64,000 nucleotides of DNA from an uncultured Acidobacteriota bacterium. GTDB taxonomy: Bacteria > Acidobacteriota > Thermoanaerobaculia > Gp7-AA8. Positions 18,001-24,000 of the stretch are shown here, piece by piece. The stretch covers positions 1,573,787 to 1,637,786 of the forward strand of contig CAWGHO010000002.1 of the NCBI GenBank assembly GCA_963822445.1, given 5' to 3'. The position numbers are program-made. Each line of letters begins with the position of its first letter. Positions within the stretch are counted from its first letter, which is position 1.

Positions 18001-21000
18001 CTGACGGATGTGCTCACTGCGCATTACGCGCACGGCGCGATCTGCGCGGCGCTGTTCGCTCGTGAACGGACCGGAAAAGGCGCGCGGCTCGAGGTCTCGC
18101 TTTTCGGCGCGGCACTGGCGTCGCTGATCAACGTAGCCCAGGGCTCGCTGGTCACCGGCAACGAGGCGCGGCGCTACGGCAACGCCCATCCGTCGATCGT
18201 TCCCTACCAGGTCTTTCATGCGAGCGATCGCACGTTCGCGATCGGCGGCGGCACCGATCGGCATTTCCGTTTACTGTGCGAGCGGGTGATCGAGCGGCCG
18301 GAGCTCGTGAACGACGAACGCTTCGCGCACAACACCGCGCGCGTGAACAACCGCGACGTGCTCGTGCCTCTCCTCGATTCGATTTTCAGGACGAAGCCGG
18401 CCGCGGAATGGATCGAGCGGTTGCGCGCGGTGTCGATTCCCTGCTCACCGGTCCGCGGCGTGCTCGAGGCACTGCGCAGCGCGGAAGCGGCGCCGCTGAT
18501 CGTCGACGCCGGCGGATTTCGAACCGTGGCCAACCCGGTACGTTTCGATGGCGAGCGCTTGCCGGTGCGACTCGCGCCGCCGAAGCTCGGTCAGCACACC
18601 GGCGAGATCGCGCGCGAGCTCACCACCGCGAATACGACAGAACGAACAGCGCCGCGCACGCGCACAGGACGAACGCCAGCAGGCCGCCGATGAGCAGCAT
18701 GTGTGACGTGCCGCCCGCCTTTGCCTCGCCGAAGCGGCGGAAGATGAAATACAGCGCGATCCCGCCGACGGCCGCGATGAACGTCCCGACGATCAAGACC
18801 ACGATCAGTGCGCGCTGAAACTCCGGATCCATCGCTCGACGGTATCACCGCCGTCATCTTCGATTTCGACGAGACCATCATCGATCTCGAGCCGCAGCAC
18901 ACCGGCGCGCACGACGCGCTCTGCCGCGAAATGGGCTCCGACTACTCGTCCATGCCCCTGGAAATGCGAACCGCCTCCGGATCGCGGATCATCGACGACA
19001 TCCGCGAGATGCGCGCGCACTTCGGGTGGAGCGAATCCGAAGAAGACCTGTTTGCGCGGCGGCAACGGCATTTCGATGAGCTCTGCGCGACCGCACCGCT
19101 CGAGCTGATGCCCGCGGTGCGGGAGACGGTGAACGAGCTGCACGCGCGCGGGTTCCGCCTGGCGATCACCTCATCCGCGGTCGCCGGTTCCATCGACGCC
19201 ATCCTCGTCCGCCTCGGCCTTCGCGACCGGTTCGAGTTGATCGTCGACGGCAGTGAAGTCGTCAACGGCAAGCCCGACCCGGAAGCCTACCTGCTCACCG
19301 CGCGGAAGCTCGGCGTGCCGCCGGAGCGGTGTCTCGTGCTCGAAGACTCGCAGGTTGGCGTGCTCGCCGCGAAGCGCGCGGGCATGTTCTGCGTCGCGGT
19401 TCCGAATCCGCGGGCGCAATCGATTCAGGACCTGTCCGCGGCCGATCGCATCGTCGAGCGGATCGACGAGGTGCTCAGGTTCTTGGCGCCATCGCGCTGA
19501 GCTCAGCCACCAGGCGGATGAGATTGCGGCCATCGTCGTCAGCGGCCTGATATGTGCGGCAGAGCGTCTGGACCTCTTCTTCCTCCTCGTGCGCGGCGAC
19601 GGTGAACCCATCCGCCGGCTGCGCGGGCGAGGACGTCGGAACGCGCCACCAGGAGTCGCCTTTCAAGCGATAGCTGACGAAGCCGCGCGAGCGCGATCGC
19701 CGCGCACCGCCGAGCTGCTCGAGAATCGTCGGCGTCTCGTCGCGATGATCGCCGGCGGCGTTGGCTTTCTGCGCCGCGAGGATCCGCCCGACGAACGTCG
19801 CCATCAGATCCTGCAACCGCTCGTTCGAATCGCCGACCGCCTTGGCGAAGCGCACGCCGGTGTGTGACACCGTGCTCTTGCCGTCACCGGCCTGGTCGCG
19901 CATCGCCTCGCTGCGAATCACCTCGCACACGAACTCGACGTCCGCCCCCTGCCACCGGAAGGAAAGATTGAAGACGTCTCCCGGTACCGGCGCTCCGTAA
20001 TGCTCGATGAGCGCGCCGGTCATGCCGATGTCGAGCACCAGCGCGTTGCCGCCGGCGAACGTCGACAGGATCGGCTTGGTGAGCTTCAGACGCTGGAAGA
20101 CGCGGCGGTCGTCGGTTGACATCTTGTGATGGAAATATATCAGCGGGCTGGTTTTGGTTGCTGGGTTGCTAGGTTACTGGGTTGCTGGGTGCTCCGCCGA
20201 GACGAACGATCGCCAAACCAGCGGAGCACTCAGCAACCCAGCAACTTAGCAACCCAGCAACCCCAAGTGGTAAGCCCTTTGCTGGGGTACATCCGAACGT
20301 CCGTGGCATCGAACAACCCCATCGATCGACGCAGTATGTGGCGCGTCGGGCCGGAGAGCACCTGGACGACTGTCGTCCCGGTCGTGTTCATCATCGTCTC
20401 TCTTCTTTCTCTGGTCGTCTTGCCGCTCGTCGTTTCGAACAAAACCGCCAAGATGCGCCAGGAGATCCAGCGCATCGCCGAGCCTGCGCGCCGTTCCGCG
20501 AACGAGATTCAGACCGGCCTTTCCGGTGAGCTGGACAAGATCATCGCTTATCAGGTCACCGGTCAGGAGCAATATCGCTCGGCTTTTTACTCACTCGTTG
20601 CAAAGCAGGAGGCGAACCGCCGCGCGCTCGCCAGCCTGTTGCCGAAGCTGGACGAAGATCTCCAGCGCGAACTCGACGCGATGTTCGTGCAGAGCAGCCG
20701 CTGGCACAGCGCGGTCGTGAGCGGCGAGTTTCTGACGCGGCAATTGCCGAGCGAAGTCCTGCTGACGCGTCTGTACGAGAGCCACGCCGTCTATGAGAAG
20801 TCGCTCCACGCAGCCTCGGAGCTCGAGCTCTCCCTGCAGATCGGCATCGAGCAGCGCCTGCGCCGCATTCGTGACGCCGAGAAGGTCAACCTCTGGCTGA
20901 CCATCATCCTCACCCTTCTCGCGCTCACCTCCGCGCTCCTCGTCGCCGGGCTGGGACGGCAGATGCGTCTCCTCGCGCGGGAGGCCATGGCCCGCCGCCA

Positions 21001-24000
21001 CGAGGCGGAGCGGGAGACGAACGAAGCCACCGTCGCCCGTGAAGCGGCGGAGATCGAAGAGCGCCGCGCCGCGTTCATCGCCGCTGCCGGACAGGAGCTC
21101 GCGGCATCGCTCGACTACGAACAGACACTGGCCACCCTCGCGCGGATCATCGTCCCCAACCTCGCCGAGATGTGCGTGATCGACATCGCCGAAGCCGACC
21201 GATCGCTGCGGCGCGCGGCCATCGCCCATCGCAATCCCGAAGATGAAACTGTGTTGCGTACGCAGATCGGCACGATGAAACGCGAGGTGCCCGAAGCGCT
21301 CGTGCGGATCATGCAGGCCGGTGATGCGACGCTGGTCGGTTCGACCTCGTCGCTCTATCAATACGTGACCGGCAACGCCGATCCCGGATCGCGAACGCTC
21401 GTGTTCCTGCCCCTGGTCAGCCGTGGTCAGACCATTGGTATCGCCGCCGCCGTCGCGCCGGAATCGCGGCCCTTCACGCGGGACGATCTCGCCCTCTTCA
21501 CCGAGGTTGCGCGTCGCGCGTCGCTGGCGATCGACAATGCGCGGCTCTACCTCGAATCCCAGCAGGCCGTGCGCGCTCGCGAGGAAGTCCTGGCCATCGT
21601 TTCCCACGACCTGCGCAATCCTCTCAACGCCGTAACCCTCGGATCGTCGCTGCTGCAGATGTCGAAATCGCTGTCGGCCGACGATCGCGAACAGATCGAC
21701 ACCATCGGCGTTTCCGCGCGGCGCATGGCCAGGCTCATCGAAGATCTGCTCGACGTGACGCGTCTCGAGGGAGGAAAGCGGTTGCCGATCGAGCCGTCAC
21801 CGGTGGAGGTGACCGATCTCCTGAACGAGGCTGAGGAGCTGTTTCGATCGCAGGCGGCGGTGGCTTCGGTGTCGATGGAGTATCAGGCCGCGGACGCATT
21901 GCCGCTCGTGCGCGCCGATCGCCACCGCGTGATGCAGGTGCTCTCCAACCTGATCGGCAACTCGATGAAGTTCACGCCGCCCGGGGGCCGCATCAACGTC
22001 CGCGCGACGGGCAAGAACGGCCACGTTCTCTTCACCGTGAGCGATACCGGCCCGGGGATCCCGAAGGAAAACCTGAGCGACATCTTCACTCCTTACTGGC
22101 AGGCGAAGCGCGCCGAGCGCCTCGGCGCGGGCCTCGGACTTCCCATCGCCAAAGGCATCGTCGAGGCTCACGGCGGGAAGATCTGGGCGGAGAGCGAGCC
22201 GGGTCGCGGGACCACGTTCAACTTCACGCTGCCGATTGCCGAAGGTGCGCAGACCGCCGCTACGAGCGTGGCGGGATCTGAAGCACGCCGCTGACGCTCA
22301 GCTCCGCGAACAGGCGGATCAGGCGGCGGCCTTCTTCATCCGAGGCCTCGTACACCTCGCAGAGGCGTTGCATCTCGACGGCATCCTCGCCGCGGGCGAC
22401 TGTGAATCCGGCGTCGGGCTGCTCGGGAAGGAAAACGCGCCGTTTCTGCCAGCCCTCGGCGTCGATGCGATAGCAGACGAACAACGCGTCCGCGCCGCGG
22501 ATGGTCTTGTCGCCGTCCACCGACTTCCGGATCAGCAGTTTCGTGGCTGACGATTCGTGGCGTTCGCTCAGCGCCTTTTCCACGAGGCGGGCGAGCATCG
22601 CCCGCAGCTTGTCGCCGGATTCGCCGACCGCGGCTAGAAAACGGACGCCGGTTTCATCGGGACGGATGTTGCGGACGACCTCGCAGCGCATGACGATCTC
22701 TTCGCCGTCGTGAGTGAAACGCAGCTCGCTGCGCTGCGCTGCGAGAGGCTCGACGTGATGCATGCGTGCGCCGAGGACGCCGACTTCGCGGAGCATCACG
22801 GGAGTCTCGCCGAACGTTCCGGGTAGAGGAGGATCGAGCTGAAGGCGTTGGAACTCGCGCCGCTCCTCACCGCGCTGCTGCATGGGGAGGGATTGTATCG
22901 CGCGTTCAATGCGCGCCGGGCGTCAACCGCACCGTCGCCACGTACGTGTTCTGCACGCGCTGGCGGTAGCGGGTGTGGCGGCGATTGACCTTCTCGATGT
23001 AGGCCTGGGTCTCCGGGAACGGCGGCACGCCGCCGAAGCGCTCCACGTTCGTCGGACCGGCGTTGTACGCGGCGAGGGCGATGCGCTGGTCGTCGAAGCG
23101 GTTGAGCAGGTAGCGGAAGTAGCGCGTTCCCGCGGCGATGTTCTGTTCGGGATCGAACGGATTGGCGATGCCGAGCGTGCGCGCGGTGTCGGGAACGATC
23201 TGCATCAATCCCTGCGCACTCTTGTTCGAAACGAGCTTCGGCCGGAAGTCCGACTCGGTATGGACCATGGCCGCGACGAGCTCCGGCGGCAGGTCATTCT
23301 TTCTCGCCTCGCGATAGATGATCGCGCCGTAGGGCACGTTCGCTTTGAAGTACTGCTCCTTGAAGACGTCGAGCGAAAGCACGCGCGGCGGCTCGAGGAA
23401 CTGCTCGCGCACGGCGTCGGTCGTGAAGATCGGCAACGCGGAAGCCTGCTGCTTCGGCGGTTCGGCGGCGCGACGCACGGCGGTGACCGCTCGCGACGGC
23501 CGGAGGGCATCGAGACCGACGGTTTTGATGTTCATCGCCGACATCGGCAGGTCGAACGCGGTCACGGCGAGCGGAATGCTCACCAGGACGGCCACGCTGC
23601 GAGAGGCAATCCTTCCCGCGCGACGCCACAGGCTGGCCTCACGCTCCCGGTGATGCTGGCACGGACAGATCAGCCGGTAGTCGGCTTTGGTCTTCCATCC
23701 GGTTCGTGTGCGGTGAGCGATCATTTCGCGAGCGCTAAGGGCAAAACGCGGACCAGTTATTTGGCCTCCTCGACCAAGTTGCTGACAACGCGGGACTTTC
23801 CGTTACGCGCAAATCAGGCGGCACATGGATTGCGATTGGCTGGCGCGTGAAACACGCCGGTTTCGTCGTCCTCATCCTCAGTCTTGTGTCGGCCGCGCAC
23901 GCCCAACAGAGCAAGTCGAAGGCGCCCGATCGAACCGCGCCCACTGGTGACTGCTCGACGAAATGGGAGACCGTGAAACCCGACATCGAGTATCGCACGA

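Follow-up and report, generated by a model that had tools for sequence, protein, structure and literature searches.

PilZ proteins are the commonest receptors of cyclic diguanylate (c-di-GMP), a second messenger, and few of them have known partners. To our knowledge, hardly any information exists on second-messenger signalling in Acidobacteriota. In Pseudomonas aeruginosa, the c-di-GMP-bound PilZ adaptor HapZ (PA2799) regulates the histidine kinase SagS through the receiver (REC) domain of this kinase. According to the definition of Galperin and Chou, a canonical PilZ domain is built of a β-barrel with six strands and, after it, a long α-helix at the C-terminus, through which PilZ domains usually contact other proteins. 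Lineage-specific two-domain PilZ expansions have already been described, with a barrel-like new domain at the N-terminus (PilZN, PilZNR and PilZN2-7), and the literature touches only in passing on PilZ proteins whose C-terminal domain is unannotated. Here, a locus from an uncultured Acidobacteriota bacterium of the class Thermoanaerobaculia has been analyzed within a window of 64,000 nucleotides (contig CAWGHO010000002.1), in a region with a G+C content of about 64-67%. The locus encodes two PilZ proteins with a common C-terminal domain, A (215 amino acids, 19475..20122, minus strand) and B (207 amino acids, 22260..22883, minus strand), flanking a membrane histidine kinase (20267..22294, plus strand), followed beyond B by a membrane-anchored lytic transglycosylase identified by its Pfam SLT domain (22906..23724, minus strand). 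Both open reading frames (ORFs) A and B are present where the initial annotation had placed them. The reading that we favor, with a probability of about 45%, is that A and B are adaptor-type c-di-GMP receptors that probably tie the second messenger to the output of the kinase, to cell-wall remodelling or to both.

The BLASTP alignment of A with B ran from end to end at 33% identity (E = 6e-35), which establishes the two as true paralogues, as had been proposed. The degenerate PilZ motifs RxxxR and D/E-x-G-x-x-G read earlier in both proteins were also recognized, and they are conserved in 48 orthologues. The first motif is RRVFQR in A (residues 6-11) and RREFQR in B (residues 8-13), and RRxxQR (R8, R9, Q12 and R13 in B numbering) is invariant among these orthologues. 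Like the canonical RxxxR, it lies in a flexible N-terminal loop, with residues 1-9 of the B model showing a predicted local distance difference test score (pLDDT) below 50. At the second motif, A reads DIGMTG and B reads EVGVLG, and neither G35 nor G38 varies in the same 48 orthologues. This motif has the form D/E-h-G-x-x-G, whereas the canonical PilZ motif is [D/N]hSxxG, a form that neither protein carries: serine is replaced by glycine in both of them and aspartate by glutamate in B. Among 87 divergent representatives of the family, R9 was conserved in 79, R13 in 83, D/E33 in 81 and G38 in 79, and position 35 was occupied by serine in 44 and by glycine in 39. This pattern roots the family in motif-bearing PilZ proteins, with the serine-to-glycine change fixed in the A and B clades. 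A and B are ancient paralogues of a two-domain family specific to Thermoanaerobaculia.

The assignment of the N-terminal half to PilZ is weak from A and B alone. The Pfam PilZ family (PF07238) was matched by B with 16.4 bits (E = 0.012), below the gathering score of 22.5, and was not matched by A; the search against NCBIfam gave no match for either protein. The assignment was settled with the profiles and the Pfam matches of their relatives. Many orthologues of the A clade carry a precomputed PF07238 match, and 51 out of 71 divergent members matched Pfam PilZ at E <= 0.01, the best of them at 2.8e-11. When compared to the PDB, a profile of the 48 orthologues matched the Legionella pneumophila protein Lpg0364 (4Q63, E = 1e-4), and a profile of the 71 divergent members matched Lpg0364 (5e-5) and the PilZ domain of Alg44 (3e-3). 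The AlphaFold2 model of B (pLDDT 82, predicted template modelling score 0.77) displays a disordered N-terminus (residues 1-9), six strands (13-24, 27-35, 38-43, 51-58, 61-74 and 77-85) and then a helix (89-108), which is the six-stranded barrel plus helix of canonical PilZ domains. The best 25 matches of this model in a Foldseek search of the PDB were all PilZ, including Lpg0364, MapZ, Alg44, the PilZ domain of the cellulose synthase BcsA, YcgR, VCA0042, MotI, PA4608 and PlzA. The N-terminal PilZ barrel anticipated for these proteins was therefore confirmed by structure prediction of B, and the N-terminal half of both is a canonical PilZ fold according to the model. The barrel (residues 13-85) and helix of B are encoded at 22560..22847 (minus strand), and those of A, located by alignment to the B model at about residues 11-118, at 19769..20092 (minus strand).

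A low-confidence, disordered linker of about 25 residues (109-133) separates the PilZ domain of B from an acidic C-terminal domain of about 65 residues (135-201; 22281..22481, minus strand), modelled as three strands and two helices (β3-α2) and reaching a pLDDT of 87 when modelled alone. In A the corresponding domain spans about residues 148-212 (19487..19681, minus strand), as delimited by family alignments and by a domain profile score of 129.9 bits. The module GFTVA..E..E...LC..Y.A.D..GR.LIRL.AELS had been read as common to both paralogues, and its core proved to be invariant in both clades, as Q155-P156-x-x-G-F-T-V, L174-C175, D182, R186, I189-R190 and E194-L195-S196. Over the family, near-invariant residues are W145, Q155, P156, G159, F160, T161, L174, C175, Y178, D182, R186, I189, R190, A193, E194, L195 and S196. 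No Pfam family was matched by this domain, and its best E-values against the PDB were only 0.17 by sequence and 1.4 by Foldseek. The initial annotation had called it a novel domain, and this holds in that no Pfam family or solved fold is related to the predicted β3-α2 arrangement; it is known in one architecture only, and novel is to be taken as uncharacterised and lineage-specific.

The distribution of the family was determined by searching a profile of the C-terminal domain against 1.84 billion representative proteins, which yielded 385 clusters (50% identity) with a cut-off of E <= 1e-3 and 227 with one of E <= 1e-10. The domain was almost always C-terminal in proteins of 200-250 amino acids with N-terminal halves that align with those of A and B, and the shorter or odd matches look like fragments or chimeric gene calls. 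Homologues numbered 739 for A, one of them identical (P0121), and 946 for B, and all family members with a named source came from metagenome-assembled genomes (MAGs) of Thermoanaerobaculia or Acidobacteriota. Two distant members, VIL97_00265 and VIL97_08255, were found in a single MAG, so there are several paralogues per genome. Besides A and B, no further paralogue was found in the window or in 91 related loci. A degenerate DNA pattern (QPxxGFT, 24 residues, RxM[ILT]R) retrieved 8 loci, none of which encodes a family member, and a full-text literature search revealed no paper on Acidobacteria PilZ proteins bearing on this family.

Gene order has been compared in one genome per GTDB species (77 loci), with each linkage counted where the flanking sequence sufficed. 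The SLT gene precedes B in 59 of 62 species genomes, kinase and B are neighbours in 57 of 61, A comes after the kinase in 52 of 54, and a gene for a HAD hydrolase, with which A is convergent in the window, follows A in 37 of 50. The order SLT-B-kinase-A is thus kept in more than 50 Thermoanaerobaculia species genomes, a result that answers in the affirmative the earlier question of whether the triplet of B, kinase and A is conserved. With core linkages of 93-96% and 74% for HAD, the next gene out, this core is more stable than its surroundings, and the orthologues at the syntenic loci are 51-66% identical to the B protein of the window. The symmetric arrangement of the paralogues around the kinase that had been proposed did not hold, as A is divergent from the kinase and B is convergent with it, overlapping its 3' end by 35 bp (22260-22294) and starting 22 nt after the stop codon of the upstream SLT gene on the same strand. 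Because the strands alternate, A, kinase and B do not form a single operon. Across the loci, A and the kinase are divided by a short divergent spacer, with a median of about 100 bp, and B keeps its 3' overlap with the kinase. At one locus (L038, 5917-8370) B and the kinase are separated by an inserted gene for an 817-aa glycogen-phosphorylase-like protein and the usual 3' overlap is broken, and at another (L074) the gap between these two genes, of about 2.9 kb, is similar in size.

The Pfam analysis of the middle ORF (722-aa numbering) identified a GAF domain at residues 329-470 (21110-21535), HisKA at 484-550 (21575-21775) with the H-box SHDLRNPL, and HATPase_c at 598-705 (21917-22240), all on the plus strand. 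Two hydrophobic segments at residues 80-103 (20363-20434) and 256-276 (20891-20953), on the same strand and assigned as transmembrane segments TM1 and TM2, bracket a helical periplasmic region of about 150 residues. Matches in NCBIfam were to the generic kinase core alone and far under the cut-offs, and no Response_reg or REC domain was detected in the kinase by Pfam. The start codon GTG at 20126, which gives the 722-aa protein (20126-22294), was rejected, as this reading runs through a repeat hairpin; with orthologues of 631-684 amino acids and conserved sequence beginning near RRS(I/M)WRVGPES, it is too long. Comparison with the orthologues places the true start at one of four codons, GTG 20267, TTG 20279, GTG 20303 or ATG 20336. 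No receiver-domain gene was found by a Pfam scan of the ten neighbouring ORFs in the window, or among the genes called beside the triplet in four related loci, which bears out at these places the initial description of a kinase lacking an adjacent response regulator. The cognate response regulator that stands beside the kinase in a classical two-component system is thus missing among these scanned and called genes.

Beyond the conserved block, 12 non-canonical places with distant members of the family were read individually, and GGDEF or GGDEF-EAL genes were found beside three of them. In L075 (995-5618), two tandem GGDEF-EAL genes, encoding a 692-aa protein and a 623-aa PAS-GGDEF-EAL protein, are followed on the same strand by a B-like member (44% identity) with a glycine-type second motif, EIGISG, that starts 26 nt after the second of them. 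This arrangement is operon-like and ties a glycine-type member to c-di-GMP enzymes. A HAMP-GGDEF gene is convergent with another member (P0312), and a third (P0281) has an SLT gene 3.2 kb upstream, the interval holding genes for a GGDEF-EAL protein and for a protein of 236 amino acids, all on one strand. These neighbours, together with PilZ homology, provide the best available argument that the family, glycine-type members included, belongs to c-di-GMP signalling. A B-type gene with 60% identity (L045, 2605-9790) lies outside the usual block, preceded by a LytS-like kinase gene and one for a LytTR response regulator and followed by one for a MASE1-PAS hybrid histidine kinase. Other members have as neighbours a low-molecular-weight phosphatase and an NHL protein (P0290), an extracytoplasmic function (ECF) sigma factor and its anti-sigma factor (P0316), RF-1 (P0397), His_Phos_1 and GH63 (P0376), genes of the beta-lactamase fold (P0364), RimP and NusA (P0400), or a cyclic nucleotide monophosphate-gated MscS-like channel and a Ser/Thr kinase (P0268).

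As A and B have long been fixed next to the kinase, A having a divergent promoter region in common with it, and next to the SLT gene, B lying just downstream, they probably tie the level of the second messenger to what the kinase puts out, to cell-wall remodelling or to both. In the favored reading, c-di-GMP would bind the PilZ barrel, preceded by its flexible RRxxxR loop, and ligand binding would reposition the PilZ C-terminal helix and, across the disordered linker of about 25 residues, the tethered acidic C-terminal domain of about 65 residues. This domain would serve as a partner-binding output module, contacting the kinase, the conserved tail that SLT has in the cytoplasm, or the two together. 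An interaction of A and B with the kinase is suggested by gene order. A narrower version, in which the β3-α2 domain docks on the kinase or regulates it, with A and B as paired accessory proteins of an orphan GAF kinase that are gated by c-di-GMP, need no REC domain and possibly also reach the SLT tail, is regarded as quite unlikely; if true, it would be a new wiring of the second messenger into two-component signalling.

Several observations weigh against a functional link with the kinase or against the receptor assignment itself. Besides the sub-threshold Pfam score of B and the missing match of A, in 11 of the 12 non-canonical places no kinase neighbours the family gene, the twelfth (L045) having a different two-component system there, and in the contexts read the wider PilZ and C-domain family lies mostly away from histidine kinases. 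The kinase of the window has no REC domain, the docking site of HapZ, and the lack of symmetry in the layout also speaks against a simple kinase adaptor. In one Thermoanaerobaculia MAG (L076, 5007-6362) the kinase is gone and B and A still follow one another on the same strand with 70 nt between them, the PilZ pair having survived the loss of the kinase there; A is missing from L036 and L070, and B from L081. In addition, B is linked to the upstream SLT gene as tightly as to the kinase, and the larger block YfhO-CutA1-Transgly-SLT-B-kinase-A-HAD-CoA-transferase is syntenic in the three relatives checked (L001, L003 and L004), so the linkage may partly be inherited gene order and not function. 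Taken to its full extent, this last point would mean that adjacency reflects inherited order only, that A and B act on targets encoded elsewhere and that the kinase signals through an unlinked response regulator. The synteny from YfhO to the CoA-transferase gene, the alternation of strands that separates the three genes from a common operon, the members in unrelated contexts and the B-A pair retained in L076 are all in agreement with it. However, the core has stayed together more often than its HAD neighbour across proteins as diverged as the B orthologues, and both the short A-kinase spacer and the B-kinase overlap have been maintained, and for these reasons this explanation is held to be doubtful, although with a real share of the probability.

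The tight linkage between SLT and B raises another explanation, namely that B, and perhaps A, partners SLT and not the kinase, and that putative docking on the cytoplasmic tail of SLT puts peptidoglycan cleavage under second-messenger control. Within its N-terminal 45 codons, SLT encodes a cytoplasmic motif, W..D[YF]R.IC.CQ.H..R...WRR, just before the membrane anchor, which is conserved in 68 orthologues. It could be a metal-binding site or a docking site that lets a cytoplasmic protein such as B regulate the periplasmic enzyme. A partnership with SLT is consistent with the conservation of this motif (D[YF]R.IC.CQ.H...WRR), with the position of B 22 nt downstream on the same strand and SLT ahead of it in nearly all genomes, with the recurrence of SLT upstream of the distant member P0281 on the same strand, and with a neighbourhood rich in cell-envelope genes (Transgly, NAGPA and YfhO, by Pfam). 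A is not adjacent to SLT, however, and the B-type genes of L045 and L075 have no SLT; we consider a partnership with SLT and not the kinase distinctly improbable. A further explanation, partly overlapping with the others, is that A and B no longer bind the nucleotide because of the serine-to-glycine change and are ligand-independent adaptors, as PA2960, the eponymous PilZ protein, and further PilZ proteins of non-canonical type are. DIGMTG in A and EVGVLG in B are fixed in all 48 orthologues, and in the literature such non-binders are common, representing more than 17% of single-domain PilZ proteins. Nevertheless, RRxxxR is invariant in A and B, whereas known non-binders usually do not have it; in a different PilZ cluster, binding reportedly persists with an altered second motif, xxSEGG; and a glycine-type member lies directly downstream of the two GGDEF-EAL genes of L075. 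Loss of binding is judged unlikely.

The spacer between A and the kinase contains a hairpin of 107 nt (20156..20262), made of two 42-nt arms of tandem 8-mers, GGTTGCTG repeats on one and CAGCAACC repeats on the other, with a 23-nt loop. Its folding energy is -91 kcal/mol (z = -10.7 versus shuffles), it is the only copy in the window, and in Rfam only sub-threshold microRNA-precursor models were retrieved. It is absent from the same spacer of L001, L003 and L004, and a sister hairpin was found elsewhere, between SLT and B, in L068 (4866-4975). A role as an operator or RNA of the system was therefore rejected, and the hairpin looks like a mobile palindromic repeat of the clade, similar to repetitive extragenic palindromic (REP) elements or miniature inverted-repeat transposable elements (MITE), outside the signalling system. 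Farther from the locus, a PIN-domain toxin gene (15220-15636, minus strand) and a small overlapping upstream ORF (15633-15926, minus strand) look like a VapBC pair and, together with an AbiEii/DUF2204-type nucleotidyltransferase gene (16476-16958, plus strand), lie at 15220-16958 between a glycosyltransferase cluster and the CoA-transferase gene. Between NAGPA and Transgly there is a very hydrophobic 117-aa ORF (24742-25095, minus strand) with no Pfam match, which is uncalled in L001, L003 and L004.

The PilZ family to which A and B belong has a well-defined architecture restricted to one lineage, and its C-terminal domain has neither a Pfam family nor a solved fold. The natural serine/glycine split in its second motif offers a testable effect on ligand binding, and the neighbourhood (kinase, SLT tail and, in relatives, GGDEF-EAL genes) names concrete candidate partners. 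If the link with the kinase is true, the HapZ-SagS idea extends to kinases lacking receiver domains; if it is false, this is simply another uncharacterised PilZ subfamily.

Among the known systems, HapZ-SagS shares with the proposed one a small cytoplasmic PilZ protein that modulates a sensor kinase and connects c-di-GMP to two-component signalling. HapZ is a single-domain protein that binds the REC domain of a hybrid kinase, whereas A and B are two paralogues with an extra C-terminal domain, and they fall outside the HapZ type because their putative partner has no REC domain, although the logic is similar. MapZ (PA4608), which acts on CheR1, and other stand-alone adaptors resemble the N-terminal domain of A and B, with the MapZ structures 5xly and 5y4r among its best structural matches. 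Both have the canonical barrel and C-terminal helix, and adaptors of the MapZ type bind their partners through this helix. A and B differ from them in the added β3-α2 domain, in the serine-to-glycine change of the second motif and in the lack of methyltransferase or chemotaxis genes nearby. YcgR, PlzD and MotI (PilZN-PilZ), MrkH and the PilZN5-7-PilZ proteins are also two-domain PilZ proteins of about 200-250 amino acids, sometimes with multiple paralogues per lineage. Their extra domain is an N-terminal PilZ-like barrel (PilZN or PilZNR) preceding a C-terminal PilZ domain; in A and B, however, the order is reversed and the extra domain is a small C-terminal α/β module (β3-α2) with no related solved fold. 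The closest solved structure is that of Lpg0364, which matches the N-terminal domain in sequence (E of 5e-5 to 1e-4) and in fold (TM-score 0.79, target-normalised) and begins with the same RRxxxRL as the family; it is a function-unassigned, single-domain protein of 105 amino acids that keeps the serine of the second motif. Compared with all these proteins, the family of A and B represents a variation, specific to its lineage, on a signalling theme already known, and not a new kind of system.

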